64,000 nucleotides of DNA from an uncultured Clostridia bacterium (GTDB lineage Bacteria > Bacillota > Clostridia > Christensenellales > CAG-314): the NCBI GenBank assembly GCA_947586855.1, contig CANPXV010000008.1, positions 8,872 through 72,871 on the forward strand, in the 5' to 3' direction. Positions 1 through 55,951 of this stretch are shown here, piece after piece. Under the pieces are notes generated by a model. The model worked only from the letters and a program-made list of their open reading frames with translations. It was not told the DNA's origin and did no database searches. The translations under genes were made by a program, and so were the position numbers. Within the stretch, counting starts at the first letter, position 1; each line of letters opens with the position of its first letter.

Positions 1-1
1 C

Positions 2-253
2 GACAGCTTTGGCATATCCCGAGGCATGGTGGGCACAATGGCGGATATCCGAGGCGTGGACAGCTGGGTAAACTTTACCGAGACGGACGCAGGCATATTG
101 TGCGAGCTGCGCTCCAAAAAGTACAACATCAACCCTGTGGCCGTCAAATACGGCGGCGGAGGACACGCCAAGGCCAGCGGCGCAACCGTGCCCGATTGGC
201 AAACAGCGCACAATATGATAGAGGACCTGAAAGCACTGCACAGAGGAGCTTGA
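2..253 (+). CDS. DHH/DHHA1-family phosphoesterase (NrnA-like), C-terminal fragment; the 5' end lies outside the window
   Basis: The frame is open from the window edge to the stop at 251-253. It carries the DHHA1 signature KYGGGGHAKASGA and is a tandem paralog of the next gene. Confidence 0.6.
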   Translation, partial: DSFGISRGMVGTMADIRGVDSWVNFTETDAGILCELRSKKYNINPVAVKYGGGGHAKASGATVPDWQTAHNMIEDLKALHRGA

Positions 254-254
254 T

Positions 255-1238
255 ATGACGCAAAAAGAGACAATGCAACAAATTTTGGACAAAATCGTCC
301 AATACGACAAAATAATCATCACCCGCCATGTGCGCCCCGACGGCGACGCAATAGGTTCGTCACGAGGGCTTGCGGCAATGCTGCGGCTGAGCTTTCCCGA
401 CAAAAAAATCTACGTCCAGACCGAGGACAAAAGCGACTATCTGGCATTTTTGGGGCCGGACGACGAGCGCTTGCCCGATAGCGAGTACGAGGGGGCGCTG
501 CTTATCGTCACCGACACCGCCACGCTGGACCGCATAAGCAACAGCAGGGTGGATCTGGCAAGCGAAATTGTCAAGATCGACCACCACATCAACATCAAAC
601 CCTACGGCGACGTCAGCTGGGTGGAAGATTGGCGCTCCTCCTGCTGCGAGATGATCGCTTTCTTCTACGAGACGTTCAGCGATGTGTTGAAGCTGGACAA
701 GGAGGCGGCAACCTACATCTACTGCGGCTTGGTGACGGACAGCGGCCGATTCCGCTACGAGGCCACCACGGGCGACACGCTGCGTATCGGCGGCATGCTG
801 CTGGATTTCGGCGTGGACATCGAGACGCTGTACGCACAGCTGTACCTCGAAGACTACTCACAGCTGAAATTTCAGGCCTACGTGCTGCAACACATGCAAA
901 CCACCGCCAATGGATTGGTGTACCTGCATGTGGACAAAAAAATGCAAAAAAAGTTTGCCCTGACCACCGAGCAGGCCAGCGAGGCGATAAGCTACCTCAA
1001 ATTTATCAAGGGCTGCCTGGCGCAGTTGGCCTTTATCGATATGCCCGACGGCACCATCAGGGTGCGGCTGAGAAGTCGCTTTATGACCATCAACCGTCTG
1101 GCGGAAAAGTACGGCGGCGGCGGACATCAATGCACCTGCGGCGCAACGCTGCACAACAAAAAGGAAATTGCCGCAATGATCGCCGACGGCGACAAAATGG
1201 TGGCGCAATACAAGGCCGAAAACAAGGGGTGGCTATGA
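255..1238 (+). CDS. nrnA: DHH/DHHA1-family phosphoesterase (oligoribonuclease / pAp phosphatase NrnA-like)
   Basis: 327-aa ORF with the DHH block (ITRHVRPDGDAIGS, KIDHH) and the DHHA1 motif EKYGGGGH. Confidence 0.8.
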   Translation: MTQKETMQQILDKIVQYDKIIITRHVRPDGDAIGSSRGLAAMLRLSFPDKKIYVQTEDKSDYLAFLGPDDERLPDSEYEGALLIVTDTATLDRISNSRVDLASEIVKIDHHINIKPYGDVSWVEDWRSSCCEMIAFFYETFSDVLKLDKEAATYIYCGLVTDSGRFRYEATTGDTLRIGGMLLDFGVDIETLYAQLYLEDYSQLKFQAYVLQHMQTTANGLVYLHVDKKMQKKFALTTEQASEAISYLKFIKGCLAQLAFIDMPDGTIRVRLRSRFMTINRLAEKYGGGGHQCTCGATLHNKKEIAAMIADGDKMVAQYKAENKGWL

Positions 1239-1945
1239 AAATCTTGGTTGCAAATGACGACGGTATCAACTCCGAAGGGTTGCGGCTGCTTGTGCAATGG
1301 GCTATGCGTATGGGCCAAGTGACAGTGTGCGCACCCGCCTTGCAGCAAAGCGCAAAAAGCCACGCTATCAACATCCACGACCCGATAGAGGTGTATCCGG
1401 CCCCCTACATCGACGGTGCGGAGGCCTACGTTGTGCACTCCACCCCCGTCGACTGCGTGCGTTTTGGCACGCTTGGCCTCAAACGCAGCTATGACCTGGT
1501 GCTATCCGGCATAAACAAGGGCTTCAATATGGGCGAGGATATGCTGTACAGCGGCACTGTGGCCAACATCTACGAGGCGGCGCTGCGTGGCTGCCGAGGC
1601 ATTGCCTTCTCTACCGACCCGACAAGTTTTGAGCGGGCGGACAAGCTGGACGAAGTGTGGCAATATATCGTCAAGCACGACCTGTTTGCCCACTGCCGCC
1701 ACTTCAATGTCAACATCCCCCTCACGGTACACGGCATCAAGTGGACGCAGCAGGGCGGCCCCTACTTTACCGACGAGTTTGTAAAGGCGGGCGACAATTT
1801 GTACAGTCAGGAGGGTTACAGCGTGTACCAGATCGGCCACGACCTGACGCTGGATACCGACGCCGTGATGAACGGGTATATATCCGTGACGCCCATCTCC
1901 ATCCGCCGAGACGACCCCGAAGTGTGGCGCAAAGTGCGCTTGTGA
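1235..1945 (+). CDS. surE: 5'/3'-nucleotidase SurE
   Basis: The ATG at 1235 overlaps the upstream stop (ATGA). The N-terminus MKILVANDDGINSEGL and the SGINKGFNMG block are typical of SurE. The track start at 629 is an out-of-frame extension across nrnA. Confidence 0.9.
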   Translation: MKILVANDDGINSEGLRLLVQWAMRMGQVTVCAPALQQSAKSHAINIHDPIEVYPAPYIDGAEAYVVHSTPVDCVRFGTLGLKRSYDLVLSGINKGFNMGEDMLYSGTVANIYEAALRGCRGIAFSTDPTSFERADKLDEVWQYIVKHDLFAHCRHFNVNIPLTVHGIKWTQQGGPYFTDEFVKAGDNLYSQEGYSVYQIGHDLTLDTDAVMNGYISVTPISIRRDDPEVWRKVRL

Positions 1946-1962
1946 AAATTTCTTGCTGATTG

Positions 1963-2052
1963 CACCTCGCTGCGCCTCGCCGGTGGGGCCACCTCGCCGG
2001 TGAGGCGAGCGGGGAACATATGGTGCTCGTAATTGACGAGTGCAGGGTTTTT
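1963..2052 (+). repeat. Mosaic REP-like element: CACCTCGCCGGTGRGGC units plus a terminator hairpin (downstream of surE)
   Basis: tgCACCTCGCtgcGCCTCGCCGGTGGGGCCACCTCGCCGGTGAGGCGAGCGGGG is followed by GTGCTCGTaattgACGAGTGC and a T-run. Confidence 0.8.
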
Positions 2053-2293
2053 ATAAAATGAGACCTACTTTTTTGAAGAAGTAGGCCTTTTTATATTGCA
2101 AAGTTCTGTGAAAAATGTGGCGGGTTGGAAGCAATCAAAACACAACACAAGCTATCCTCAACTACACCCTGCGCACAAAATTTTGCGGCAATGGGGTAAA
2201 AAAACGACCCAACACGCCTCACCAATGCGGTGAAACGCCTTGCAATATCTCAATAATAAATATTTACTGAAAAAATTTCTTATATAAAAATAA

Positions 2294-2390
2294 GCACCCG
2301 CCTGCAATCAGACGAGTGCTTGAAAACTGTTCCTACTTGCCTCACCGGCGAGGTGGCCTCACCGACGAGGTGCAGCGAGGTACAGAGAGA
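2294..2390 (-). repeat. Mosaic REP-like element plus terminator hairpin (downstream of the minus-strand 5'-nucleotidase)
   Basis: Reverse-complement copy: GCACCCGCCTGcaatCAGACGAGTGC, then CCTCACCGGCGAGGTGGCCTCACCGACGAGGTG. Confidence 0.75.
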
Positions 2391-2396
2391 GTTTAT

Positions 2397-4097
2397 CTAA
2401 CGGACGGCCTTGCGCCTCTTGACGAGCAGCACCACCACAACCGTCACAACGGCGGCCACCACCAGCACTGCGCCGACGATTATCAACACCAAGGCCCAGG
2501 TGGGCAGTGTGCTGCCGCTGTTGCCGTTGTTGATAGCGGTCAGGTTGTAGGGCTCGATGGGCAGGTCGGCCAGACTGCGCAGTTTTTTGGCATTGGTGTG
2601 CACGTTGTTATCCGCTACATAGGGCGAGACGTCCAGCGTGCCCGTTTGCGACTGCAAAAAGTCCTTGGTGATGAGGCGATAGTTGTACACCTGTCCATCC
2701 TTTTGCAGCGGGATCGGATCAAAACCGCTTGTGAACGCCGACGGGAAGTAGTTGTAGTTGCGTTCGGAATTTTGGTGATACAACAGGTAGTCTATCACGG
2801 CGATGTAGTAGAAGGACTTGTCGGAGTCGGTCACCGCACGTCCGCTGACACGCCACATGCTCTGGCCGGAGTAGCCCATCTCCTTGTTGATGTCCCTGCC
2901 GGACACCTTGGCGATGTAGACGGTGTTGTCAAAGGGCAGCGCCGTGTACAGCGAGGAGTTGGTAACATTGCCGCTGATATTGGCACGGGCCTCGTTGACA
3001 ATGGCCAGATCGATGACGTAGCCCTGCTGCTTGGCAAAGTCGGCAATGGCGTTGCACACCAGGCGGGGCAGGCCGGGATTTTTGCTGAGCGAGCCGCTAA
3101 GCTTGCCCAGCACCTTGTTGCGGTCCTCGATGGCGGCATTGGAGTTGTCAATCAACGTTTGCACCTTGTTTTGCACTGTGGCATCGATATCGCTCAGGCT
3201 GTTGTACGAGATATTTTCGTAAGTCTCGACATTGACGTTGCCGTTGCTGACGGAAAACTTTACGTGCGAAACAAAGTCGCCGTAGCGCTTGCCCTGCAAA
3301 AAGGGCAAACCGTCCACCAGATAGCGCTCCTCCGAGTGGGTGTGGGCGCAGAACATGGCGTCAACGTAGTCCTCCAAGCCGGCCGCCGACGAGGGCTTTT
3401 TGTAGTCGTCATCCTCGCCGACAATGCCCTGCGGTCCTGCGTGGGCGCTTACCACCACGATGTCGCAATCTTGCTGCTCTCTCAGCTCGGTGGCAAGCTT
3501 CTTGATGATGGGCAGCGGCTCCTTGAAGCCTATCGTCTGCACCAACTGAGAGCTGATGGACGTGATCTGGTCCTTACCGATGACGCCGATGACACCCACC
3601 TTGACGCCGTTTACCTCTTTGATGATGTACTCGTCGGCAAAGTCGTCGGCAAAGTCTCCCCAGCCGTCGGTACGGTTCCAATTGTAGATGTTTGCGCCGA
3701 GAAACGGTATGCCGCTGGTGGATGCCAGGTTGCGCAGGTTATCCATACCCCAATCGAACTCGTGGTTGCCGTAGGTCATGCAGTCGAAGCCTGCCTCCTT
3801 CATGCAGTCGGTCAGCAGCCTGCCCGAGTTGCTGTTGGACTCCATCGAGCCTTGAAACATATCTCCGGAGTTGATTATCACCGCCCCCTTGGCCTTTTGT
3901 GCGGCAAGAAAGCCTGCAATTTTGGGCATTTGCTCCACCTGCCCATGAAAGTCGTTGATGGCGTACACATCCACATACTGTGTGCCGTCGGCAAAGGCGA
4001 CGCTCTGCGCAAACACAACAGCGCCCAAAGCGCAAAAAGCTATTGCAAAAAACACAACAGCCAACGCTACCGATACAAATCTCTTTTTTGTTGTCAC
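2397..4097 (-). CDS. Bifunctional metallophosphatase / 5'-nucleotidase, secreted and membrane-anchored
   Basis: Contains the motifs NDFHGQ, GDMFQGS and GNHEFDWG. The GTG at 4097 follows GGAGAT and yields the signal peptide KKRFVSVALAVVFFAIAFCALGAVVFA. The C-terminus is a hydrophobic helix followed by KRRKAVR. Confidence 0.85.
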   Translation of the reverse strand: MTTKKRFVSVALAVVFFAIAFCALGAVVFAQSVAFADGTQYVDVYAINDFHGQVEQMPKIAGFLAAQKAKGAVIINSGDMFQGSMESNSNSGRLLTDCMKEAGFDCMTYGNHEFDWGMDNLRNLASTSGIPFLGANIYNWNRTDGWGDFADDFADEYIIKEVNGVKVGVIGVIGKDQITSISSQLVQTIGFKEPLPIIKKLATELREQQDCDIVVVSAHAGPQGIVGEDDDYKKPSSAAGLEDYVDAMFCAHTHSEERYLVDGLPFLQGKRYGDFVSHVKFSVSNGNVNVETYENISYNSLSDIDATVQNKVQTLIDNSNAAIEDRNKVLGKLSGSLSKNPGLPRLVCNAIADFAKQQGYVIDLAIVNEARANISGNVTNSSLYTALPFDNTVYIAKVSGRDINKEMGYSGQSMWRVSGRAVTDSDKSFYYIAVIDYLLYHQNSERNYNYFPSAFTSGFDPIPLQKDGQVYNYRLITKDFLQSQTGTLDVSPYVADNNVHTNAKKLRSLADLPIEPYNLTAINNGNSGSTLPTWALVLIIVGAVLVVAAVVTVVVVLLVKRRKAVR

Positions 4098-4400
4098 TGT
4101 GATCTCCTTGAAGTTTCCGCTTGGTTGCGGCTGAGTTGGTAAAAAATTGTGCTGCGATAGGCGGCAAAAACCCAAAAACACTACGGAGTCTTTCGTTTGA
4201 CCGCACACGGCGGAGGAAAAGTTTCGCATAAAAAACGAACAAAACTACTTATATCCGCAGTCAACCGAATTAGTTGACGCTATTCTATCAATAAGATATT
4301 ATACAGCAAATTGTTCACTTTTGCAATAGGTGACGCAACAAAAGCCGTCGTTTTTTGCAGGTTTGACGGTGTTTTTTGCAGGTTTGGCGGCGCTTGGCAC

Positions 4401-4431
4401 AAAAAAAATCAAGCGCCTATGTGCGGCGCTT
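4401..4431 (-). terminator. Intrinsic terminator
   Basis: On the minus strand: AAGCGCCgcacataGGCGCTT followed by T8. Confidence 0.7.
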
Positions 4432-4710
4432 GACGGAGACAAACTCTATTTTGCCCCAGATGTCCCTCAACGTGGCCCTGCGACCCCGCCCCAGACGGAA
4501 AATTTTGTCGTCCCGAAAGGCGCCGTAGAAGTGCACCACCTCTTTGCGATCGGGCGTCAGGGTCAGCTCGATGTACTCGCCGCCGTCGGGCAGGGGCTGC
4601 GCCGTGACCGAGCAGTGCGCATAGTGGCCGTAATCCCGAACGCAAAATTGCGCCTCGCTGATTGCGCCCGAGTTGAGATCCTGTACAAATTGTGCGTAGG
4701 TGTAGTCCAT
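4417..4710 (-). CDS. Hypothetical small protein
   Basis: 97-aa ORF starting MDYTYAQF, with GAGG 8 nt upstream of the ATG at 4710 and a terminator at its 3' end. I recognise no motif. Confidence 0.5.
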   Translation of the reverse strand: MDYTYAQFVQDLNSGAISEAQFCVRDYGHYAHCSVTAQPLPDGGEYIELTLTPDRKEVVHFYGAFRDDKIFRLGRGRRATLRDIWGKIEFVSVKRRT

Positions 4711-4843
4711 TTGCTGCCTCGTCTGCGTTGCGGGCGACGCCACATCGCCGCCCTTTGCCGATATTATATATCATCTCACCCCCATTTTGCAACATTTTCC
4801 GCCGAAATGTGCCCGACAGCCACAAAAACAAGCAACCGAACAC

Positions 4844-4867
4844 AAAAAAACGGCTTATCAAAGCCGT
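4844..4867 (-). terminator. Intrinsic terminator
   Basis: On the minus strand: ACGGCTTtgatAAGCCGT followed by T7. Confidence 0.7.
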
Positions 4868-4875
4868 TGAAAATA

Positions 4876-5274
4876 TCAATTGATTGCACTTGCGTCGAGG
4901 TAACTCCAAGCCGAGTCGCCACGTCTGCCCGAAGAATCTACCGCCTTTATGCGAATGATAGTGTTCGGATCGTCGGGACAACTCCACCGACAAGCCTCCG
5001 CAACAAATTGCCGACCGTTTACCTCCACAATGTAGTACGAGGCATGCCTGACGGCGTCCCACGTTACCAAATCGCCCTGCCGCCTGATGTTATCCACAGC
5101 GCCCAATCTTTTTGCCACAGGCGCAACGTTGATGTGTGGCACGTCGAACAGGCTGTTGGCGACATAAATAAACGATGCCGCAACAAGCGCCACAAAAAGT
5201 ATCATTGTTGCCGTTTTGAAAATTTTGATTGCCCACACACTTCGGTGTCTGTCTGTTTTGTCTTGTCCTTTCAT
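4876..5274 (-). CDS. Hypothetical N-terminally membrane-anchored protein
   Basis: AAGGAGG lies upstream of the ATG at 5274. One TM helix (ATMILFVALVAASFIYVA) is followed by a roughly 90-aa beta-rich domain, and a terminator lies downstream. Confidence 0.55.
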   Translation of the reverse strand: MKGQDKTDRHRSVWAIKIFKTATMILFVALVAASFIYVANSLFDVPHINVAPVAKRLGAVDNIRRQGDLVTWDAVRHASYYIVEVNGRQFVAEACRWSCPDDPNTIIRIKAVDSSGRRGDSAWSYLDASAIN

Positions 5275-5712
5275 GTTTTTTTCCTCCTTGTTTTGGGACA
5301 ATTTTGCATTAAAAAAAGAGATACAATAGTACCTCTATCGCACTTGCTCTTTAAGTGCAACGCAATTCTATCACTGCGCAAAACTGCCGTCAACTGTTTT
5401 TAACTACTTTTTTGCGATTTTTACAAACAAATTTGGACAAATTTGCAAACAATTTTTTTGAGCGCTTTTTCAAAAAATGCATGCGTTACAAAGCGCCGCT
5501 AATACCGCACGGACGAAAGACAAAATATATGGACGTTGTTGCGGTATATACAAATCCGAACGCCCCATGAACCTTGTTTTGGTTCAGTTGACGTCCAGAA
5601 TGGTCTGGTTCCATTGCACAAAGCGGAAAACGGGCGATGCGCGGCGCAAGGGGCAGCGGAAAAATGAACGCCGCAGTCATATAATTTATATAATAAAATC
5701 ACCCTTCTCAAC

Positions 5713-5741
5713 TTGACATTTTTTGCGGGGGGGGGTACAAT
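5713..5741 (+). promoter_or_regulatory. Sigma-A-type promoter with a G9 tract in the spacer
   Basis: TTGACA (5713-5718), a 17-nt spacer ttttttgcGGGGGGGGG, then TACAAT (5736-5741). The GGAGG and ATG of the LRR gene lie 25-36 nt downstream. Confidence 0.7.
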
Positions 5742-5776
5742 CTATTTGTGATAAAATTTCCCTATGGAGGTAATGA

Positions 5777-8700
5777 ATGAAAAAATTCAGGCACATAGCC
5801 ATTGCGATCCTTGCGGCGTTGGCGTTGGTAAGCGTGTGTGCTGCCGTTGCTGCGTGCGATACCAACGGCCACGAAAACAACTGCACGCACCCCAATTGTG
5901 AATGGGTTCCACTGAATGAATTCCTGCACCAACAAATATGCGCAGATTGCGGCGATATTGTAAATGAAGAACCCCACAGTTTTGATACGAACAACGTGGA
6001 GTTGTTACGCAAATGCACGCTCTGCGGGTACACGGAAAATATTGAGCCAATCGACCCCGGCGATGAGGATGAATATGGCGGATTGTACGAATACCAACTG
6101 TCGAGTGAGGACGCAGACGGCGTTTGCGGCATACGGTTGCAAGTCAACCTGCACTACGCCCGAAAGAACGTGACGGAGATACCCTCCGAGGCGCCGGAAA
6201 AAGAGTGTGAAAATTTGGAGCGTTGGGCTTCGGAGCGCGGGGCCGAGTTCGCAAACGAAGTCCGCAGATTGGAGTTTGGAAACTACGATTACGACTACTA
6301 CAAGCCGACAAAAGAGATGTTCACTTCCCTCGCCATCCCCGAAAGCGTGGAAGAAATATATGTGTACTTGGACAGCACCGATACCCTTGAAGCCAACGGC
6401 CAAACAATGAGTGAGTTCCAGTGGTTCAAGTCTCTGTGCAAGCACGAGGACGGCGGCTACTACCTCGGCACGGCAAACAACGCCTACCACGCCTTTATAT
6501 GTGCGGACAAGGTGGAAGAGCTCACTGTGCATGCGGGCACCAAGATCTTCCTCAACAACGCCCTGCGTGATGGTAGTTACGAGCCGGAAGCGGCGTACAC
6601 TCTCAAAAAGATCACCCTCCCCGAGGGCATCAAGAGCCTGCCTGAGGGAGGATTCTATCGCATGTACCAACTCAGAGAGGTCAACATCCCCGATGGCGTC
6701 ACGTACATACCGGCGCATTGCTTTGAGGAAACAGAGGTGTCGGAGTTGACCATTCCCGACTCCGTTGTGGAAATAGGGGACGAGGCCTTCAGGTTTGCTC
6801 CTCTGCACACCTTGGTGCTGCCGGACAGCGTAACAAAGCTGGGCAAAAAGCTCTTTGTGCCCAGCGATGATTACGGCCACGCCATGAGATACTTGGAGTT
6901 GGGCAGCGGCATCACCGAGCTGCCCGAGGGCACCTTCACCCCCAATGTGGAGATTTTGGAGCTGTGCAACCGGTCGCAGCTGACCCTCACCAACGATGCC
7001 GAGGACGACACGGGAACGTACATCAACGCACACCACATCATCACGGACCCGGCTGAAACAAGCATATTCACGGAGGGCGAGTACGTCTACTACCGCAACG
7101 GGTACGATGTGCTGTGCATCGACTACATTGGCGAGGAAACGGCGCTGACCCTGCCGGAAATGTACGGCCAAGTATCCTACAGCGCCACGCCCCTCTTTGG
7201 CGGCTTTTCAAATGTGACGGAGTTGACCATTCCCACCACTGTGCACAGCTGGAGCCTGAACCATCCCTGCAGATACGGCGCCAACACGCAAATATGCGTT
7301 CCCGAAAAGATAACGGGCAGCTGGCAGCTAATACAAGACTTTCAAAACGACAAGCTCGAGTACCTATACGATGACCATGTGTACAGGGACACCCGCGAGA
7401 TAGTTGTACTGGGCAACATACGGATTCAGTCCACGCACAGGAGCGAGTTCGACAAGGTGACCCTCGACACATCCGTGAAAAGCGTCACGCCCGCCCCGGA
7501 TGAAACCAGCCACTACAGCAACCTGCTGACGGCAACTGACCTGTATGTGATGCCCGGCGCTTTGGCCGATTGCGACACCGCCGTGCTCGGACGACTATTT
7601 GCAAGGAACAGCCTCAAGGCAGATTGCCGCATTGTTGCGCATATTGTGGCCGATGGCGGATACGATCAGGTGATAGAGAGAGTGGAGATAACTTCCTACG
7701 ACCCCAACACATACACGACGCCTGCCAGCACATACAGCACATGCGGCATCCGTGAGCTGGTGGTAAGTGAAGGCATCACCACATTGCCGGATTACCTGTT
7801 TGGCAGCAACGATTATGTATGGCTGGAGAAGGTGACCCTGCCGCAAAGCTTCCGCGTGATACCCGATAGATTGCTGCTTGGCGGCGATTTTGAAGAGATA
7901 GAGCTGCCCGAGGGCATCACCAAGATAGGCAACGATGCCTTCAGGGACTGCGAAAACCTCAAAACACTGACCGTGCCCGCAGGAGTGGAACACATAGGCG
8001 CCTATGCGTTTTTGGATTGCAATGCGCTAACATCCATAGTGATGCCGGACGCCCTGAGTTTCCTCGGCTGGCAGGCATTCAACTCCGAAACCATCGGCGA
8101 CAGAGTGGGCGGCGTGATATACCTCGGCAAGTATGCCATCGGCTTTGACGGCACCATCGATGACGTGGTGTTGAGGGACAACACCGAAAAGCTTTTCGAC
8201 TTCGGCTATGCGCCCGGCAACCCAAGGTACAACATTGACCCCACCATCACCTCCATAGAGCTGCCTGCCTCCCTCGATTGTTGGGCGAGCTTGGTGTGGG
8301 CAGAGGACAACTTCGGCTTGGACGGCAACGGTAAAAGCGTGACATACGCCGACCTCAAGGAGATAAGGGTGGACGATGCCAACGAGCACTTCGCCTCCTG
8401 CACCGGCCTGCTGTACAACAAGGCGCAGACGGAGTTGCTGTGCGTGCCCTACTGCTTTGACCCCGAGCAGGTGCACTTCCCCGAGACGCTTACGCACATA
8501 GGCGAGGACCTGTTTAATAACACAGCGGCCTTTTGGCAGCGCCCGACCCGTGAGCTGTGGGAGCTTGACGGCTGGGTACTGTACTTATCTCTCGACAGTG
8601 GAGTGCCCGAAGTGGACCCGACCAAGCGCTACGCCGATGGCATATTGGACAATATCGACAAATTCAGCTGGCAAGGCTTCATTTATAACCAAACAGACGG

Positions 8701-9694
8701 CAAGCTTACGCTGAACTCGGTTACGGACAAGGACCTGTACTTTGTAAACATCTACCCCGGCACCTATGCGGTAGCCTCGAACGCTTTTGCGGACATGCCC
8801 AACCTGTACGGCGTGTACTTCCCCGCCTCCGTGCAGAAGCTCAACTCCGCTTTGTTCGGCAACTGCACGCATGCGGTAAACCGCTACTTTGAGGGGGACC
8901 TGCCCAAGGATAGCCGCAACTATGCCATGTCGACAGGCGGCACGCTGATATACGGTGTTGTGGATGGCGGTGAGTATACTCACGTGACTATAGACCCGAT
9001 CACGTCCAATATATACGTGGATGTGGAGAACACGTACAATCGTTCCTCCGGTGCGGAGACGTTGTACATGATCTGCGGCAATACAAGCATGCCTATGCGT
9101 CCATCTACTGTGGTGAAAGTTCCGGATATGCACGATGACAAAGTTGTGGATGGCGTTGCCGACTATGCTTTTATGGGCAGCCCCATATATTGGCTGGATG
9201 TGTCTGCCGAGGACACGCACGTCAAGTTCATCGGCAAGTATGCCTTCCAAGGGTCAAGATTGGGAGAGCTGCACGTCACCAATGTGGGATACATAGGTGA
9301 GCATGCATTCGACAAAACCCAATTGAGTTCAGTTGGTAATTGCATAACTTTTGCTTACAACGATGAGTTGAGCAATGAATTCGCGCTTTGGGTAGAAGAT
9401 AAAGCGTTTGCCAACAATGAATTTTCGGAGATCCAGTTTGGCACCACCAATGTGGTGTTCGGCAGAGCGGTATTTGAAGGGTGTCAGAGCCTCCTTGCGG
9501 TAGGCACAGGCGAAACCGATACAACGATTTCCCGCACCTGGTACACGGCAACGGTGGATATGTCAGGCGGACAGCCATCGGTTGTTGTTACAGAAGTGCA
9601 ACTGACGGCGCTGCAACTTGCCCAAGCACTCAAGAGCAACAATATGCCGTACGCCTACTTACGCTTGTACATTGATGTAAGTGCCGGGCAGTGA
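5777..9694 (+). CDS. Large leucine-rich-repeat (BspA-like) surface lipoprotein
   Basis: 1305 aa. Signal peptide with lipobox AVAAC. Many repeats of the IP..V..IG..AF..C..L type (LRR_5/BspA pattern). Confidence 0.85.
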   Translation: MKKFRHIAIAILAALALVSVCAAVAACDTNGHENNCTHPNCEWVPLNEFLHQQICADCGDIVNEEPHSFDTNNVELLRKCTLCGYTENIEPIDPGDEDEYGGLYEYQLSSEDADGVCGIRLQVNLHYARKNVTEIPSEAPEKECENLERWASERGAEFANEVRRLEFGNYDYDYYKPTKEMFTSLAIPESVEEIYVYLDSTDTLEANGQTMSEFQWFKSLCKHEDGGYYLGTANNAYHAFICADKVEELTVHAGTKIFLNNALRDGSYEPEAAYTLKKITLPEGIKSLPEGGFYRMYQLREVNIPDGVTYIPAHCFEETEVSELTIPDSVVEIGDEAFRFAPLHTLVLPDSVTKLGKKLFVPSDDYGHAMRYLELGSGITELPEGTFTPNVEILELCNRSQLTLTNDAEDDTGTYINAHHIITDPAETSIFTEGEYVYYRNGYDVLCIDYIGEETALTLPEMYGQVSYSATPLFGGFSNVTELTIPTTVHSWSLNHPCRYGANTQICVPEKITGSWQLIQDFQNDKLEYLYDDHVYRDTREIVVLGNIRIQSTHRSEFDKVTLDTSVKSVTPAPDETSHYSNLLTATDLYVMPGALADCDTAVLGRLFARNSLKADCRIVAHIVADGGYDQVIERVEITSYDPNTYTTPASTYSTCGIRELVVSEGITTLPDYLFGSNDYVWLEKVTLPQSFRVIPDRLLLGGDFEEIELPEGITKIGNDAFRDCENLKTLTVPAGVEHIGAYAFLDCNALTSIVMPDALSFLGWQAFNSETIGDRVGGVIYLGKYAIGFDGTIDDVVLRDNTEKLFDFGYAPGNPRYNIDPTITSIELPASLDCWASLVWAEDNFGLDGNGKSVTYADLKEIRVDDANEHFASCTGLLYNKAQTELLCVPYCFDPEQVHFPETLTHIGEDLFNNTAAFWQRPTRELWELDGWVLYLSLDSGVPEVDPTKRYADGILDNIDKFSWQGFIYNQTDGKLTLNSVTDKDLYFVNIYPGTYAVASNAFADMPNLYGVYFPASVQKLNSALFGNCTHAVNRYFEGDLPKDSRNYAMSTGGTLIYGVVDGGEYTHVTIDPITSNIYVDVENTYNRSSGAETLYMICGNTSMPMRPSTVVKVPDMHDDKVVDGVADYAFMGSPIYWLDVSAEDTHVKFIGKYAFQGSRLGELHVTNVGYIGEHAFDKTQLSSVGNCITFAYNDELSNEFALWVEDKAFANNEFSEIQFGTTNVVFGRAVFEGCQSLLAVGTGETDTTISRTWYTATVDMSGGQPSVVVTEVQLTALQLAQALKSNNMPYAYLRLYIDVSAGQ

Positions 9695-9831
9695 CTGTAG
9701 GCGCAACTGCACTGCCAACTGCAAGCTTACTATAAAGGGACTGCCGCACCAAGTGGCGGTCCCTTTCCATTGCGCTTGCACCTGTGCCTTCGATGAATGT
9801 CGAAACCTCAAAGCGCCACCACCTTCCCACT

Positions 9832-10060
9832 TGGTCTGAGTGACTGGACTCGTCTCCCACGCAGTGGGAGTAAGTACATTCGGCGTCGAGCCAATCTGTG
9901 CAGTGCACAGTTGGTAGCCGAATGCCCAAGGGTGTGCTCCCGCTTCGCTAAATGAGCACACCCGCAGGGATAGAAGGCAACAGATAACTTTGTCGAAACA
10001 ATGCGGTAAAAGAGAACGACACGGAACGCTACATTATTTCGTTATCCAGTCACGGAGACC
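9832..10060 (-). repeat. tRNA-Pro-3'-end-bounded inverted-repeat element, long form (copy 1)
   Basis: The left end TGGTCTGAGTGACTGGACTCG equals the 3' end of tRNA-Pro(GGG). The right end CCAGTCACGGAGACC is its inverted copy. The roughly 190-nt core is nearly identical to 10143-10332. Confidence 0.7.
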
Positions 10061-10106
10061 ACGTTGCGGCGCACCTGAGACAAGAAACAAACTACTACAA
10101 AGGGAA

Positions 10107-10332
10107 GTCGAAGTGACGGACTCGTCCCGAGCGTAGCGAGGGTAAGTACATTCGGCGTCGAGCCAATCTGTGCAGTGCACAGTTGGTAGCCGAATGCCCA
10201 AGGGTGTGCTCCCGCTTCGCTAAATGAGCACACCCGCAGGGATAGAAGGCAACAGATAACTTTGTCGAAACAATGCGGTAAAAGAGGACGACACGGAACG
10301 CTACATTATTTCGTTATCCAGTCACGGAGACC
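10107..10332 (-). repeat. tRNA-Pro-3'-end-bounded inverted-repeat element, long form (copy 2)
   Basis: The left end GTCGAAGTGACGGACTCG resembles the tRNA-Pro(CGG) 3' end. The core has one visible mismatch to copy 1. Confidence 0.7.
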
Positions 10333-10357
10333 AAGGCGAGCAAGCAATAAATGAGCA

Positions 10358-10384
10358 ACAAAGAAAGGAGCGCTTTTGCACTCC
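10358..10384 (-). terminator. Intrinsic terminator after tRNA-Pro(CGG)
   Basis: On the minus strand: GGAGTGCaaaaGCGCTCC followed by TTTCTTTG. Confidence 0.55.
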
Positions 10385-10419
10385 TCTCTTTGTTGCGACT
10401 ACACAGGCGCCGCTCGCCT

Positions 10420-10495
10420 TGGTCGAAGTGACTGGACTCGAACCAGCGGCCTCTTGGTCCCGAACCAAGCGCGCTACCAACTGCGCTACACCTCG
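10420..10495 (-). tRNA. tRNA-Pro(CGG): tRNA-Pro (anticodon CGG), CCA encoded
   Basis: Hand-folded cloverleaf: CGAGGTG TA GCGC AGTTGGTA GCGC G CTTGG TTCGGGA CCAAG AGGCC GCTGG TTCGAGT CCAGT CACTTCG A CCA. Confidence 0.9.
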
Positions 10496-10873
10496 ATATT
10501 AAATTTACTATTTTTTTTACTACTTTCTACTTGATAGCAGTTGGTAGGCCCAAGGCGCTCCCGCACTTCGAGCAAGCTCTCGTGGGTGCTATGCTACAAA
10601 CACCGCACTGTGGTGTTTGCTTAACGCGCACCCCAACTGCGCTACACCTCGATATAAATTTTGCCTTGTCTGAATTTGTTGCACTTCGGCGCTGCGCCTC
10701 GGCGCTACACCTCGATTGCTATCTTATTATACAAGATAACTCGTTTTTTTGCAACCGATTGCGCAAAATCTTTGCAATCTTGTTGGCGGCGGGACAATTT
10801 GTGCAAACTGCTTGCGATTTGGCGGCGGCAGTGCTATACTATGGTCGTAAAAAAATTTGCAAAAGGAGAAATT

Positions 10874-11443
10874 ATGAAAAAGTTTTTTGGCGAATTCAAA
10901 AAATTTATCACCCGCGGCAACGTGATCGATATGGCCGTAGGCGTGATCATCGGCGGCGCATTCAGCGCAATTGTAACGGCGCTTACCAACCAGATACTGA
11001 TGCCGCTTATCAATTGGTTTTTGGCGGTCATCACCAAGGGCGAGGGCATGGGCGACGTTGTTACCATGCTTAAACCTGTGGAGGTGGACGGCGTTGTGGA
11101 TATGACGCAATCCATCTACATCGATTGGGGTGCGTTTATCACGGCCATCATCAACTTTTTGCTGATTGCTTTGGTGCTGTTTTGCATCATCAAGTCCATC
11201 AATGTGGTGCACGAGGGCGTCAACAAACAAAAGGGCAAATATGCGCCCCTCACCAAGGACGAAGTGCGCCAGCTGCGTGCCGAGGGCAAATCCCGCGAGC
11301 AGATAGCCGCCGCTGCCCAAGCTAAACTTGCCGAGCAGCAAGCCGCCGAGGCCAAGGCCGCCGAAGAAGCTGCCGCCAACGCCCCCAAAACCGAGCAACA
11401 ACTGCTAAGCGAAATTGTGGAGCTGCTAAAAGAGAAAAAGTAA
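10874..11443 (+). CDS. mscL: Large-conductance mechanosensitive channel MscL (long loop and an Ala/Glu/Gln-rich C-terminal tail)
   Basis: AAAGGAGA lies upstream of the ATG at 10874. The N-terminus FKKFITRGNVIDMAVGVIIGGAF is the MscL signature. Confidence 0.85.
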   Translation: MKKFFGEFKKFITRGNVIDMAVGVIIGGAFSAIVTALTNQILMPLINWFLAVITKGEGMGDVVTMLKPVEVDGVVDMTQSIYIDWGAFITAIINFLLIALVLFCIIKSINVVHEGVNKQKGKYAPLTKDEVRQLRAEGKSREQIAAAAQAKLAEQQAAEAKAAEEAAANAPKTEQQLLSEIVELLKEKK

Positions 11444-11773: not shown

Positions 11774-14700
11774 ATGAGGAACAAAAAGCTGATCTGGATA
11801 GTGTTGCTTGCGCTTGTGTTGGCAACCGCCATTGTTTTTGTTGCCTGCAAGCCCGACGAACAAAACGACGACGTTTGGACAATCGAACGAGTGTACGCAC
11901 GGGCGCAAGAATTGGGCTATCAGGGCACGCTGGACGAATTGATCGAACAATTTAGGGGTGCGGACGGCGAGGACGGCACCGACGGAAAGGACGGAAAGGA
12001 CGGCGTCGGCATCAAAACTATCGAAATAAACGCCGACGGCGAATTGATAGTTACCCTCACCGACGGCACCGAGCTCAATCTGGGTGTTGTTGTCGGGGCC
12101 GCCGGACCGCAAGGACCTCAGGGACCCACAGGGCCACAAGGACCGCAAGGACCCTCGGGACAAGACGCCACCCAGAACGACGTCCACACCTTTACCGTGA
12201 CATTTGTGGCAGAAGGCCACGAGGCGGGCAAGGTGGTTTGTCTGGACGGCACAACTGTTGTGGCTGAACCTGCCGTTCCTCAAAAGGAACACTACACGGG
12301 CCGCTGGGAAAGCTACACGCTTGCCAATGCCGACATCACGGTGCAAGCGGTTTACACCCCCACCGAGTACAGCGTGGTTTTTGCCGGCAACGGACAACAA
12401 GAGGTGCGCACCTACACAGTGGAAACAAAGGACGACGTGACGCCTCCCGAAGTGCCCGCCAAAGAGCACTACACGGGCGCTTGGCCTCAATACGAGTTGC
12501 AATTTGAGCAAAATCAAATTGTAAACGCCGTGTACACCCCGATAGAGTACACCATCACTTTCGACGACGGCGCCAAGCAAACAAAAGTTACATATACGGC
12601 GGAAACTATGGCCGAAATTGCCCCGCCGGACATCACACCCAAAACGGAACAATACTACGGGTTTAGCTATGACGAGGGCCGTTGGGAACAATTTGATTGT
12701 GAATTTGACAATGAGCAGGTCGTCTACGCCGTTTACAGCTTGGTGACGCCCGGCTACACATACACCCTCAATGACGACGGTCAAAGTTACAGCCTGACAA
12801 ATGTCTCGGCAGAACTTGCAGACGCCATCGTCTTGCCTTATTACAATGATTTGCCTGTTACAAATATAGGAGAATATGCGCTAAGCGGTCGTTTTCAACT
12901 GATCTCGATCACAATAGCAAGCAACGTTGCAAGCATTGACGACTTTGCTTTTTCAAAGTGCACTTCGCTGGAAACAATAACATTTGAGGGCGACAGCCAT
13001 TTGCAAACAATAGGCAATCGAGCCTTTTTCGACTGTGAACAATTGCTCTCTATCACAATTCCCGACGGCGTCACAAGCATTGGCGATTACGCATTTTTGG
13101 GGTGCGGTAGTTTGCAGACGGTGACGTTTGAGAGTGAAAGCCAACTGCAAAATATTGGCGAACATGCTTTTAGTGATTGCGGAAGCTTGCAAGAAATAAC
13201 ATTAGCAACCGATCATCTGCAAAATATCGGTGATTACGCCTTCTATCGGTGTGGACAATCCGAAAAATTGACGTCAATCACAATACCAAGCAGCGTCACA
13301 AACATAGGAATATGCGCTTTTTCGGAGTGGGACAATTTGCAAACAATAACGTTTGAGGGCAGCAGTCAACTGCAAAGTATAGGACACTGCGCTTTCATGT
13401 CATGCACACGGTTGCAAACGGTAACTTTTGAGGGCACAAGTCAATTGCAAAGTATAGGCAATCAGGCTTTTGATAGTTGTTACGAATTACCATCTATCAC
13501 GATTCCCGGCAGCGTCACATACATAGGCGAATGTGCTTTTTCCGATTGCTGGGAGTTACAGACAGTAACATTTGAAGACGACAGCCAATTGCAAAGCATG
13601 GGCTACGGTATTTTCTTCCGTTGTAGTCAATTGTCTTCAATCAAAATCCCCGACACGGTAACAGAAATAGGTGAGCAGGCCTTTATGAGTTGCAGCAATT
13701 TGTCATCAATCTTTATACCAAGCGGCGTCACAAGCATAGGTGAATCTGCTTTTTATGGTTGCAGTGGTTTGATGTCCATCAACATACCTGACGGCGTCAC
13801 AGACATAGGTAAATATGCCTTTGATTTGTGCGGCAGCTTGACCACAATTGTCATACCAAGCAGCGTCACAAGCATAGGCGACGGCGCATTTGCCGAATGT
13901 GACAATTTGGAAAATATTGAGGTGCAACCCGATAACCCCAACTACCATTGCACAAACAATTGTTTGATAGAAACCGCCTCTCACACGCTTGTCGCCATTT
14001 GCAAAAACTCTACAATCCCCGAAGACGGCAGTGTTACAATCATAGGCGCATATTCCTTCTATAATCGCACCGACTTGGATTCGATAACTATCCCCGACTA
14101 CATCACAAGCATAGGTGAATCTGCTTTTTCTGGTTGCAGTGGTTTGATGTCCATCAACATACCTGACGGCGTCACAGACATAGGTAAATATGCCTTTGAT
14201 TTGTGCAGCAACTTGACCACCATTGTCATACCAAGCAGCGTCACAAGCATAGGCGACGGCGCATTTGCCGAATGTTGCAATTTGGAAAATATTGAGGTGC
14301 ACCCCGATAACCCCGTTTACCATTGCACAAACAATTGCTTGATAGAAACCGACTCTCACACACTTGTCGTCGGCTGCAAGAACTCCACAATCCCCGATGA
14401 CGGCAGCGTTACAATCATAGGCGCATTTGCTTTTAGTGGTTGCAAGGATTTGGAAGCAATCACAATACCAAGCTGCGTCACAAGCATTGGCGTCAGCGCT
14501 TTTGAATCTTGCAGCAGTTTGAAATCGATTGTAATTCCACGCAGCGTCATAAGCATTGGCGAGATTGCTTTTGTCAATTGCAGCAGTTTGCAAACGGTGA
14601 CTTTCGAAGGCGACAGCCAATTGCAAAATATAGGCACCGGTGCTTTCAGCAATTGCAGCAGCTTAGTTTCGATAGCTATACCAAGCGGTGTCACAAGCAT

Positions 14701-14899
14701 TGGCGCATGGGTTTTCTACAATTGCAAGAGTTTGACATCAATCACTATACCAAGCTCGGTTACAAACATTGGCGACAGCGCTTTCAATGATTGCTACAAC
14801 TTAACCATTTATTGTGAGGCTACAAGCAAACCGGCAGGGTGGCATAAAGATTGGAATATCGACAATTGTCCCGTTGTGTGGGGATACAAACAACAATAA
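11774..14899 (+). CDS. Surface lipoprotein with collagen-like G-X-Y tracts, Listeria-Bacteroides-type repeats and BspA-like LRRs
   Basis: 1041 aa. Lipobox VFVAC. G-X-Y tracts GADGEDGTDGKDGKDGVG and GAAGPQGPQGPTGPQGPQGPSG. Repeated ..YTG.W...Y..A.YTP.EY modules, then many IP..VT.IG..AF..C..L repeats. Confidence 0.85.
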   Translation: MRNKKLIWIVLLALVLATAIVFVACKPDEQNDDVWTIERVYARAQELGYQGTLDELIEQFRGADGEDGTDGKDGKDGVGIKTIEINADGELIVTLTDGTELNLGVVVGAAGPQGPQGPTGPQGPQGPSGQDATQNDVHTFTVTFVAEGHEAGKVVCLDGTTVVAEPAVPQKEHYTGRWESYTLANADITVQAVYTPTEYSVVFAGNGQQEVRTYTVETKDDVTPPEVPAKEHYTGAWPQYELQFEQNQIVNAVYTPIEYTITFDDGAKQTKVTYTAETMAEIAPPDITPKTEQYYGFSYDEGRWEQFDCEFDNEQVVYAVYSLVTPGYTYTLNDDGQSYSLTNVSAELADAIVLPYYNDLPVTNIGEYALSGRFQLISITIASNVASIDDFAFSKCTSLETITFEGDSHLQTIGNRAFFDCEQLLSITIPDGVTSIGDYAFLGCGSLQTVTFESESQLQNIGEHAFSDCGSLQEITLATDHLQNIGDYAFYRCGQSEKLTSITIPSSVTNIGICAFSEWDNLQTITFEGSSQLQSIGHCAFMSCTRLQTVTFEGTSQLQSIGNQAFDSCYELPSITIPGSVTYIGECAFSDCWELQTVTFEDDSQLQSMGYGIFFRCSQLSSIKIPDTVTEIGEQAFMSCSNLSSIFIPSGVTSIGESAFYGCSGLMSINIPDGVTDIGKYAFDLCGSLTTIVIPSSVTSIGDGAFAECDNLENIEVQPDNPNYHCTNNCLIETASHTLVAICKNSTIPEDGSVTIIGAYSFYNRTDLDSITIPDYITSIGESAFSGCSGLMSINIPDGVTDIGKYAFDLCSNLTTIVIPSSVTSIGDGAFAECCNLENIEVHPDNPVYHCTNNCLIETDSHTLVVGCKNSTIPDDGSVTIIGAFAFSGCKDLEAITIPSCVTSIGVSAFESCSSLKSIVIPRSVISIGEIAFVNCSSLQTVTFEGDSQLQNIGTGAFSNCSSLVSIAIPSGVTSIGAWVFYNCKSLTSITIPSSVTNIGDSAFNDCYNLTIYCEATSKPAGWHKDWNIDNCPVVWGYKQQ

Positions 14900-14951: not shown

Positions 14952-15000
14952 CGTTGCGACTACCAAGGCGAACAAGCAAAACACACCCCTACGAAGGAAG

Positions 15001-15076
15001 TTCTGAGTGACTGACTTGTCTCGGCGCAGCCGAGTGAGTACATTACGCTACATTATTTCCAACTGTCCAGTCACGG
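15001..15076 (-). repeat. tRNA-Pro-3'-end-bounded inverted-repeat element, miniature form (76 nt, degenerate)
   Basis: TTCTGAGTGACTGACTTG..CTCGGCgcaGCCGAG..TACATTACGCTACATTATTTCC..GTCCAGTCACGG. Confidence 0.6.
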
Positions 15077-15089
15077 CACCCATCAAATA

Positions 15090-15193
15090 GGTCTGAGTGA
15101 CTGGACTTGTCTCGGCGCAGCCGAGTAAGCGGAGCAACTTCGCAGAAGTTGCGGAGCGCTACATTATTTCAAACTGTCCAGTCACGAAAGACC
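15090..15193 (-). repeat. tRNA-Pro-3'-end-bounded inverted-repeat element, miniature form (104 nt)
   Basis: GGTCTGAGTGACTGGACTTG at the left and GTCCAGTCACGAAAGACC at the right, with internal hairpins CTCGGCgcaGCCGAG and GCAACTTCgcaGAAGTTGC. Confidence 0.65.
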
Positions 15194-15221
15194 TGCACAG
15201 GCACGCCAAAAGGGAGAAACG

Positions 15222-15247
15222 AAAAAAAGGCACAACTACTTTGTGCC
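15222..15247 (-). terminator. Intrinsic terminator after tRNA-Pro(GGG)
   Basis: On the minus strand: GGCACAAagtagTTGTGCC followed by T7. Confidence 0.7.
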
Positions 15248-15284
15248 CTTTTCGTTGCGACCCAACACGGCGTCGCCTGTGCAT

Positions 15285-15361
15285 TGGTCTGAGTGACTGG
15301 ACTTGAACCAGCGACACCTAGACCCCCAGTCTAGTGCGCTACCAAACTGCGCTACACCCAG
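15285..15361 (-). tRNA. tRNA-Pro(GGG): tRNA-Pro (anticodon GGG), CCA encoded
   Basis: Hand-folded cloverleaf: CTGGGTG TA GCGC AGTTTGGTA GCGC A CTAGA CTGGGGG TCTAG GTGTC GCTGG TTCAAGT CCAGT CACTCAG A CCA. Confidence 0.9.
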
Positions 15362-55585: not shown

Positions 55586-55692
55586 TTAAATAAACCTATA
55601 GTTGTATGCTGCTATATCGTTGGCGAAGTTTATAAGCTGATGTTTAATTAAGGCAGAATGCCTACAAATTTATACCGATTCTACTGGCGATT

Positions 55693-55881: not shown

Positions 55882-55951
55882 AGAAAATATTACAAATGGC
55901 TTAAATTCAACTTTAAGCCATTTGTAGTGTTAGTGTTTTGAATTTTTTCAA

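Follow-up and report, generated by a model that had tools for sequence, protein, structure and literature searches.

Repetitive extragenic palindromic (REP) sequences occur as doublets forming hairpins (REPINs), which are mobilised by RAYT transposases, and in bacterial interspersed mosaic elements (BIMEs); these are short repeats of alternating orientation that form hairpins and lie in mosaic clusters with few linker types. Cis-mobilizable elements (CIMEs), which are found at tRNA genes, presumably depend on a recombinase acting in trans. The CTX phage carries two attP sites in inverse orientation, 90 bp from each other, whose pairing in the (+) strand gives attP(+); this recombines with dif by one strand exchange, and the elements pile up in tandem (PMC4246890). 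The attC sites of integrons follow a plan of box, spacer, box, and variable terminal structure; a survey of integrons found no complete integrons in the Firmicutes genomes analysed, only arrays of the CALIN type (clusters of attC sites lacking integron-integrases) (PMC4889954). Here we describe a locus that we compare with these systems. It lies in a 64,000-nt window of contig CANPXV010000008.1, from an uncultured rabbit-gut Clostridia bacterium, in which gene-less DNA modules are stacked behind both tRNA-Pro genes, two loci ~5 kb apart. Both genes were called intact by ARAGORN and Rfam. Positions are those of the window, and the arrays are described on the minus strand, in the sense of the tRNAs.

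We put at roughly an even chance the interpretation that these modules belong to a family of non-autonomous, miniature, gene-less, site-specific integrative units of 190 to 310 nt, which target the T-loop and 3' end of tRNA-Pro in a small clade of uncultured rabbit-gut Clostridia; that the two long elements behind tRNA-Pro(CGG) are the larger parts of two such units we hold with the same even confidence. The arrays contain direct repeats of 17 to 21 nt that start in the T-loop, with the tRNA kept intact, as tRNA islands do, and we would class the family with the site-specific integrative elements at tRNA genes. The units look previously undescribed, and literature searches on mobile elements at tRNA genes turned up nothing similar. 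What we count as observed is the anatomy of the arrays, the alternation of repeats, their constant spacing, the compensating stems, the conserved ends, the identity across species, a single inserted unit in one relative (L030), and the use of the same site by a prophage.

The two long elements had been noted in a first-pass annotation made from the letters of the window, and their positions held on inspection (element 2, 10333..10107; element 1, 10061..9832), as did the terminator between tRNA-Pro(CGG) and element 2 (a 19-bp stem, 10355-10396), the 46-nt spacer between the elements, the hairpins named within them, and a D-arm-like GCACAGTTGGTAGC on the plus strand. Each element starts with the inverse complement of the tRNA-Pro 3' end, GGTCTCCGTGACTGGA in both copies, and the imperfect terminal inverted repeats, put at ~17 bp, span 16 to 17 nt with two to three central mismatches in every copy. 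The elements are 96% identical over 216 aligned nt; the ~190-nt cores were rightly called near-identical, with one position differing, and the remaining differences fall in the last ~45 nt, which comprise a small 3' hairpin and the tRNA-like end. That end was correctly assigned to the CGG type in element 2 (GAGTCC-GTCACTTCGAC, with a 1-nt deletion and CCA absent). Element 1, which ends in ...GACGAGTCCAGTCACTCAGACCA, had been described as identical to the 3' end of tRNA-Pro(GGG); this is true of its last 19 nt, but only 19 positions of the 20-mer quoted agree, the T-loop base being G, as in the CGG type. The end is chimeric, with a CGG-type T-loop base followed by a GGG-type acceptor strand and CCA. 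Because a GGG-type acceptor strand stands at the CGG locus, element 1 did not arise by local duplication of the resident tRNA's end; the foreign type of its acceptor suggests that exchange took place either inside the common TCCAGTCAC block or from one locus to the other. With at most one mismatch, CCAGTCACNNNGACC matches six times in the 64 kb, against 0.12 expected, each time at one of the two tRNA-Pro loci, and a 68-nt segment of the core occurs twice in the window, against 0 expected. The elements fold much better than shuffled sequences on both strands (z of -6.5 and -5.0).

Reading from tRNA-Pro(CGG) (10420..10495; Rfam tRNA score, 67.8 bits), the first direct copy, D0, is formed by the last 17 nt of the gene itself (10420-10436, TCCAGTCACTTCGACCA), which are also the 5' arm of the first hairpin. 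The trailer module T(CGG) follows (10333..10419; 88 nt including the last A of CCA); its single-stranded DNA (ssDNA) fold is predicted at -43.2 kcal/mol (z of -9.7), its start, AAGGCGAGC, pairs with its end, GCTCGCCTT, in a terminal stem of 11 pairs (P of 0.0065), and the terminator stands mid-module. The inverse copy at the left end of element 2 (10317..10332, GGTCTCCGTGACTGGA) is the 3' arm of the D0 hairpin (25 nt, 88% complementary). The interior of element 2 (10121..10316) consists of a left motif, N4-GAAATAATGTAGCG, a long-form insert of ~145 nt (~10148-10292) carrying the hairpins GGGTGTGCTC/GAGCACACCC and CATTCGGC/GCCGAATG, and an imperfect small 3' hairpin, CCCTCGC-TAC-GCTCGGG, followed by GAC. 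A degenerate direct copy of CGG type ends the element (10107..10120, TCC-GTCACTTCGAC, with the 1-nt deletion and loss of CCA). The 46-nt spacer (10061..10106) is a decayed trailer without terminator, whose start, TTCCCTTTGTAG..., resembles sequence at the GGG locus, described below. Element 1 repeats the arrangement, with an inverse copy at its left end (10045..10060) that takes its place in the alternation of repeats, an interior (9849..10044) with the same left motif and long-form insert (~9876-10020) and a perfect small hairpin, CTCCCAC-TGC-GTGGGAG, again followed by GAC, and a direct copy at its end (9832..9848, TCCAGTCACTCAGACCA) in which the GGG-type acceptor strand succeeds the CGG-type T-loop base. 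The long insert is optional, because metagenome contigs carry 9 to 16 nt in place of 9876-10020. We also considered whether the long core is a decayed pseudogene of tRNA-Pro, in direct or inverted orientation, and rejected this, since an 11- to 14-nt D-arm match and the resemblance on the sense strand were within the range of shuffled sequences.

A second array, missed in the first pass, stands behind tRNA-Pro(GGG) (15285..15361), whose 3' end is its D0. Trailer module T2 (15194..15284) contains a terminator, folds with a z of -11.2, and has ends that pair, (AA)TGCACAGGCG with (T)GCCTGTGCA. Two short relatives of the long elements, with the same ends, follow it. Mini A (15089..15193, ~105 nt) is made up of an inverse copy (GGTCTTTCGTGACTGGA), N6-GAAATAATGTAGCG, a 71-nt interior that includes the hairpin CTCGGC-TGC-GCCGAG, and a direct copy (15090-15105); mini B (15000..15082, ~83 nt) has a truncated inverse copy (..CCGTGACTGGA), the left motif of mini A, a 50-nt interior, the small hairpin of mini A, and a degenerate direct copy (GTC-AGTCACTCAGAAC). 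The 46-nt spacer of the CGG array starts like the sequence that follows mini B, and the long form amounts to a mini element plus the ~145-nt insert.

The only related genome in a collection of 185,579 species was a rabbit ('Lapin') metagenome-assembled genome (MAG) of Clostridia (locus L001), which has two more elements, X1 and X2, behind its tRNA-Pro(GGG); a third species (L030) has one element of the same kind. When the seven elements (1, 2, mini A, mini B, X1, X2, and that of L030) were aligned from inverse to direct copy, only ~37 nt at the left and ~40 nt at the right were conserved, the interiors being unrelated or absent. The left region consists of CGTGACTGGA, 4 to 6 nt, and GAAATRATGTAGCG; the right region has a hairpin (5 to 7 bp, loop of 3 nt), next GAC or TGC, and last C-R-A-R-TCC-AGTCAC... 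The stem of this small hairpin varies and yet stays paired in three versions, CTCCCAC/GTGGGAG, CTCGGC/GCCGAG, and GCGGC/GCCGC, with a fourth, CCCTCGC/GCTCGGG, that is imperfect and recurs in two species. The first-pass annotation had left room for the core being found at this locus alone; it occurs only in metagenomes of the rabbit gut, from three studies, where its pieces are considerably deeper than the flanks of the window and lie beside other sequences. Many variants in other rabbit-gut metagenomes have the same ends with different interiors, again at a depth above that of the flanks. Only the runs of one rabbit gut metagenome sample contain 89 to 94% of the sampled words of the window region, part of which is also present in other rabbit and gut runs.

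Direct (D) and inverse (I) copies of the tRNA 3' end alternate strictly in all four arrays (the CGG and GGG arrays of the window, L001, and L030). In the six intact modules the segment from D to I measures 88, 92, 91, 92, 88, and 91 nt and is always a trailer with a terminator; the modules represent three trailer sequence families, about 60% identical to one another. Within each family, ~10 nt at the start of the trailer pair with ~10 nt at its end, in a stem whose letters differ between families (AAGGCGAGC/GCTCGCCTT; TGCACAGGCG/TGCCTGTGCA; GTGGGCGGAC/GTCCGTCCAC), with P of about 0.007 per family in an arm-shuffle test. Together, D, trailer, and I make a forked hairpin in which the D/I pairing is extended to 23 to 27 bp. 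The plan shared by the modules is an outer stem (TCCAGTCAC/GTGACTGGA, 9 bp), an internal loop (3 x 2-4 nt) that falls on the acceptor bases distinguishing the two tRNA-Pro types, 4 bp (GACC/GGTC), a bulge of 0 to 2 nt, 9 to 10 bp, and a terminal part with the terminator. Predicted ssDNA folds of four intact modules range from -38 to -45 kcal/mol, with z of -7 to -11. An RNAalifold run on the six modules was set aside: MAFFT had put the variable arms out of register, so that the basal stem went unscored, and the folds of single modules and the arm-shuffle test took its place. In the first hairpin of each array, the 3' end used is that of the functional tRNA itself. The D/I complementarity goes on into the trailer side and not into the I-to-D element side; between the tRNA 3' end and the left end of element 2 the inverted repeat runs 9 bp further into the trailer, around the terminator, than had been noticed in the first pass. 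Because complementarity stops at the I-to-D elements, the inverted repeat is better described as the two arms of a trailer hairpin.

This anatomy invites comparison with the CTX-type integrative mobile elements exploiting Xer (IMEXs). As there, inverse target-like copies stand about 90 nt apart (88 to 92 nt here, 90 bp in CTX) and can pair to form an imperfect, forked hairpin; a site is followed by a loop, an inverse site, cargo, and another site; arrays are in tandem; no recombinase of their own is present; and a filamentous prophage with Zot and a rolling-circle Rep occupies the same chromosomal site in a relative. The target here, however, is the T-loop and 3' end of tRNA-Pro rather than dif, the folded ssDNA is a prediction from sequence, no dif-like 11-6-11 site or XerC/XerD-type binding arms were recognised by eye, the units are gene-less and 190 to 310 nt long, and the right end of the prophage is dissimilar to those of the mini elements. 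Like integron attC sites, the hairpin is an imperfect palindrome that alternates with cargo, keeps its structure while its sequence varies, and leads from an outer box (here of 9 bp) over an unpaired spacer (3 x 2-4 nt) and a bulged inner box to a long, variable terminal structure; unlike them, its boxes are TCCAGTCAC/GTGACTGGA and not the R/L consensus RYYYAAC/GTTRRRY, the cargo has no open reading frame (ORF), and a functional tRNA gene is used to make the first hairpin. With tRNA islands, accretion arrays, and CIMEs the family shares direct repeats of the tRNA 3' end, tandem stacking at one attB, and the lack of recombination genes, but those elements are kilobases long, whereas the units described here carry an inverse att copy at a fixed distance and conserved ends of the type seen in miniature transposable elements with inverted repeats (MITEs). 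REPINs and BIMEs likewise consist of hairpin-forming repeats of alternating orientation; REPs, however, are dispersed over hundreds of intergenic sites and are not derived from tRNA ends, and no RAYT gene was seen here. By analogy, the family would appear to work most like a CTX-type or attC-type hairpin site grafted on a tRNA attB, far smaller than any CIME.

We therefore phrase the integrative interpretation as a working model. A unit, in tRNA sense, would comprise a trailer of 88 to 92 nt with its terminator, I, the left motif N4-6-GAAATRATGTAGCG, a variable cargo of 20 to 170 nt, the small hairpin with GAC, and D, which begins inside the T-loop. It would insert at the tRNA and leave the gene intact; the gene would survive because a terminator and a substitute 3' end come with the unit. 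D-I-D-I arrays would then arise as insertions are repeated, units recombine with one another, and copies decay. Movement of the units would depend on a recombinase acting in trans from a gene elsewhere, probably one of the tyrosine type, with a crossover near the T-loop. The attachment site may be the D-trailer-I segment folded, in single-stranded DNA, to a forked hairpin in imitation of the duplex tRNA 3' end; the order of site, ~90-nt loop, inverse site, cargo, and site is what single-strand hairpin integration by a tyrosine recombinase would be expected to leave. A single-stranded intermediate is plausible on physical grounds, and a single-stranded circle would be favoured because a 190-bp duplex circle should be a poor substrate. 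Should the units prove mobile, they would rank with the smallest known elements that integrate site-specifically, holding little beyond an att site, a terminator, and a spare tRNA end, and folded single-strand att sites, so far known from Xer-exploiting filamentous phages and from integrons, would extend to tRNA genes and to Clostridia. A bolder version, in which tRNA-Pro anchors an integron- or CTX-like single-strand platform where the 3' end of the gene, a trailer, and an inverse copy make up the folded attachment site and a putative recombinase captures ~200-nt gene-less cassettes, shuffles them, and swaps them between species, we regard as doubtful; if it held, hairpin-att mobile elements of a new class would exist in a phylum that has so far yielded no complete integrons.

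Related loci differ at this target. In L010, tRNA-Pro(CGG) is joined directly to a simple hairpin trailer, which we call trailerX, an empty site. In L030 a single 193-nt unit (trailer T1, I, mini, and D), flanked by 21-nt direct repeats that begin in the T-loop, stands between tRNA-Pro(GGG) and the ancestral trailerX. In the window, a CAGACCA remnant and trailerX (TTCTGGACG...TTTGTATATACCGCAACAACGTCC...) are found at 5510..5607, on the minus strand and 4.8 kb from tRNA-Pro(CGG), with the two long elements and a gene for a BspA-type leucine-rich repeat (LRR) protein in between. These loci would fit a succession from no unit (L010) through one (L030) to two units and an LRR gene (the window), but they belong to different species. 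Because a tRNA 3'-end remnant and the ancestral trailer lie beyond it, the 3.9-kb LRR gene (5777-9694) would fall inside accreted material, and all DNA between tRNA-Pro(CGG) and trailerX looks to have been accreted. In their T-loop bases the D copies agree with the tRNA of the locus, with CGAGT at the CGG locus, CAAGT at GGG loci, and CAAAT in L030.

The modules also appear to have been exchanged between genomes. For T2 the identity of the window and L001 copies is 92%, and for T1 that of the L001 and L030 copies is 91%, while the adjacent 206-aa gene is only 63 to 65% identical at the DNA level between species and the rest of the 8-kb locus does not align. The pairing of modules differs as well: T2 is found with an element of the mini A/X1 type in the window and with the unrelated X2 in L001, where T1 accompanies X1.

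A part of this evidence can be read another way, as had been anticipated in the first pass, where scars of integrase-mediated events at a tRNA attB were suggested. On that account, larger islands or phages entered the tRNA-Pro attB by ordinary double-strand integrase events, and the arrays are their decayed leftovers, which deletions shortened and unequal crossing-over multiplied; I would be inherited from one arm of an ancestral element, and the units would never have moved by themselves. Direct repeats of a tRNA 3' end from the T-loop onward, laid out as serial integration would leave them, are the classic integration signature; a prophage demonstrably occupies the site; degeneration is visible in parts of the arrays; the LRR gene is placed, as island cargo would be, between array and trailer remnant; the two long copies are adjacent and 96% identical; and neither a recombinase nor an excision product was found. 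Passive scars leave unexplained, however, the constant spacing of 88 to 92 nt from D to I over three trailer families, the complementary terminal stems that differ in sequence from family to family, the conservation, in three species, of both the left and the right end around free interiors, and a module identity of 91 to 92% against a background of 63 to 65%. We consider this account possible but rather unlikely. The conserved ends, the constant 88-92-nt hairpin module, and the 91-92% identity across species speak for cis-acting sites that are maintained and against random debris, and even if the arrays were debris only, the conserved 90-nt hairpin would need explaining.

The other suggestion, of a MITE-like mobile element, captured several properties of the family, which is small and gene-less, has conserved ends and variable interiors, and bears signs of movement between species. 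In its classical form it would make the I-to-D elements deletion derivatives of a DDE-type insertion sequence (IS), moved by the transposase through the 16- to 17-bp inverted repeats with a strong preference for the tRNA-Pro 3' end, and the imperfect terminal inverted repeats, small size, non-coding sequence, conserved ends around a variable middle, number of copies, and presumed mobilisation in trans are all typical of MITEs. Against this, no duplicated flanking bases were found at elements 1, 2, mini A, mini B, X1, or X2, and so no target-site duplication; one of the two 'repeats' is always the exact continuation of the tRNA into the T-loop (CRAGTCC), which the other arm is without; matches in the 64 kb and in the fetched loci occur only at tRNA-Pro 3' ends or at a prophage attR, a single kind of target; and the complementarity runs outside the 'element' into the trailer, to whose hairpin the inverted repeat structurally belongs. 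The first-pass failure to match the elements to an IS family was borne out by a scan of the 185,579 species genomes with the left-end pattern, which returned one locus, itself an array, and no longer, autonomous partner. Scans of IMG/VR and JGI metagenomes with the left-end pattern were empty; all these pattern scans were exact, so that diverged partners would escape them. A blastn search of phage and plasmid collections gave no match. We judge a classical MITE very unlikely.

Neither inverted repeats nor target duplications would be needed if the elements were miniature relatives of the IS200/IS605 type (HUH, 'peel and paste'), that is, palindrome-associated transposable elements (PATEs) with subterminal hairpins, inserted 3' of a short T-loop motif. 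The strict orientation and the lack of duplication agree with this, as do the large D-trailer-I hairpin 3 nt inside the left unit boundary, the small hairpin 2 to 3 nt inside the right, and unit boundaries that follow a C (GTTC| in the tRNA; GGAC|, AGAC|, and TTGC| in the units). The left and right hairpins of IS200/IS605 ends, however, are related in sequence, which those of the units are not, a target of 3 to 4 nt would not confine insertion to tRNA-Pro, and no TnpA or TnpB gene was seen among the ORFs tested. We find it hard to give this alternative much weight.

The third suggestion of the first pass, a co-transcribed structured RNA, fared worst. Such an RNA would be transcribed with the tRNA or lie antisense to the tRNA-Pro 3' end and act in tRNA processing or regulation. 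The very stable predicted folds on both strands, the compensating changes in the small 3' hairpin among copies, and the complementarity to the tRNA 3' end would all suit it. But the elements lie behind a strong terminator with a 19-bp stem, opposite the hairpin of a convergent LRR gene (9745-9775), and no promoter-like site was found inside them; the 3' arm of the big hairpin comes after the T-run of the terminator; and the interiors, expected to be the functional part, are the least conserved and may be 50 or 200 nt long. A cmscan search, as proposed in the first pass, matched only the two tRNAs in Rfam, the elements matching no family even at E up to 5, in agreement with the earlier failure to recognise a known RNA. 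In RNA runs the matching words were those of the tRNA only, and no run contains an element. A structured noncoding RNA seems to us very improbable.

The same tRNA-Pro site is used by a phage. In tRNA-Pro(GGG) of related rabbit-gut Clostridia, prophage stretches were located at L029 739-2101, L031 52-1345, and L032 ~1-7810. In L029 and L031, the DNA 5' of the 24-mer GTTCAAATCCAGTCACTCAGACCA is the end of an element encoding a G2P-type rolling-circle Rep (PF23343, phrog_3419); in L030, which is from the same species (it encodes the same 208-aa protein), the tRNA body stands at that junction and there is no prophage. The prophage of L013 and L032 is joined at the GTTCAAGTCC variant of the same 24-mer, and the homologous element of L032 also encodes Zot (29 bits, above the Pfam cut-off). 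Because Zot stands alongside the rolling-circle Rep, we take the element to be a filamentous, inovirus-like prophage. No integrase was seen in the 7.8 kb available (L032). We rejected the prophage as the parent of the mini elements, since its right end, the part compared, is unrelated to theirs.

Several points weigh against integration of the units as the explanation of the arrays. Because the right end of the prophage is unlike those of the mini elements, the evidence for a link to single-stranded DNA elements is circumstantial. Searches for integrase or recombinase domains were negative for 20 ORFs of the window and for the array neighbours tested (L001, L010, L013, and L032; for L032, three ORFs were scanned and the called genes had no integrase family on record), and no integron integrase or attI was found among the ORFs tested near the arrays. 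The 206-aa neighbour gene was considered as a candidate recombinase and rejected; with two hydrophobic helices and no domain hits, its product is taken to be a membrane protein. Neither an excised circle nor a precise empty site for the two long copies was found in the metagenome runs, which are contigs and not raw reads, and a 272-nt stretch that was simply duplicated in tandem could account for the two copies. Decay is seen at two D-to-I junctions of the window (spacers of 46 and 13 nt, with a truncated I), so part of the arrays, at least, is debris. The identity of trailers across species could stem from selection on the trailer rather than from transfer, and selection of the hairpin at the RNA level is formally conceivable. 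The family is known from four arrays in three species and from one habitat. Finally, L003 (1-61), L009 (1-116), and a run contig at window position 15285, all from the same or a near-identical strain, have a different trailer directly after each tRNA-Pro: L003 combines a changed T-loop base with a new trailer, and in L009 tRNA(GGG) is joined to trailerX. These contigs end 44 to 99 nt past a tRNA common to co-resident species, and we downgraded them as proof of recent movement. The tRNA(GGG)|trailerX junction also occurs in the window's own sample, and trailerX of L009 has the same start as the window copy and differs from it at 3 positions; the variants may be assembly chimeras through the conserved tRNA or else recent replacement events.

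The arrays also show remodelling of a tRNA integration hot spot in uncultured gut bacteria, beside large BspA-type surface-protein genes, and they explain breaks in metagenome assemblies at these tRNA loci.

The 5' flank of tRNA-Pro(CGG) has repeats of its own, missed in the first pass. Between the promoter and the real gene, at 10496..10725 on the minus strand, are two partial copies of the tRNA 5' end (TCGAGGTGTAGCGC...), of 14 and 20 nt plus ~10 nt of upstream sequence, with 50 to 140 nt of extra sequence. Because they stand between promoter and gene, tRNA-Pro(CGG) would carry a leader of ~220 nt. They are absent from L010 and from some metagenome contigs (joints 10497->10711 and 10495->10703). 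An inverse copy of 8 nt (CCAACTGC) stands 88 nt beyond the second of them; a mirror hairpin on the 5' side, suggested by this spacing, was rejected because its fold was no better than shuffles (z of -1.6). A motif of ~35 nt (CGAAG(T)GCGGGAGC..CCTTGGGC..CTACCAACTG) is common to the long-form inserts (9896-9940 and 10168-10212) and the 5'-side insertion (10538-10571), with a score of 26 against 14.9 +/- 2.0 for shuffles (maximum, 22). It suggests that modules may have been exchanged between the 5' and 3' flanks of the tRNA; whether the 5' copies are part of the same system as the trailer elements is uncertain.

On the minus strand, the genes around the arrays are, in order, that for the 206-aa membrane protein, tRNA-Pro(GGG), a BspA-type LRR gene (11774-14899, antisense), MscL (10874-11443, antisense), a sigma-70-like promoter, tRNA-Pro(CGG) with the two long elements, and the second LRR gene (5777-9694, antisense). 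In L010, a 456-aa ORF (2320-3690) with only a weak match to the RYYR-CCHC domain stands between the trailer of tRNA-Pro(CGG) and the gene of the 206-aa family. The LRR gene at 11774-14899 has an internal 331-nt repeat of 93% identity (13728-14058 and 14103-14432), and in a strain that is 98.9% identical (L004) the same gene is shorter (893 versus 1041 aa), which fits variation of repeat number in a surface protein. An argument from replication strand for the elements was dropped, as GC skew is weak and the origin was not located. A stretch poor in ORFs (~51600-58500) lies in an AT-rich part of the window (GC of 0.44 at 48 to 56 kb, against about 0.53 over most of the window) and holds a 29-nt repeat in 7.2 copies (55376-55582) and a 143-nt tandem duplication (54235-54517); it is situated between YidC (48702-50042) and dnaN (61659-63098), both on the minus strand, and may be the region of the replication origin.

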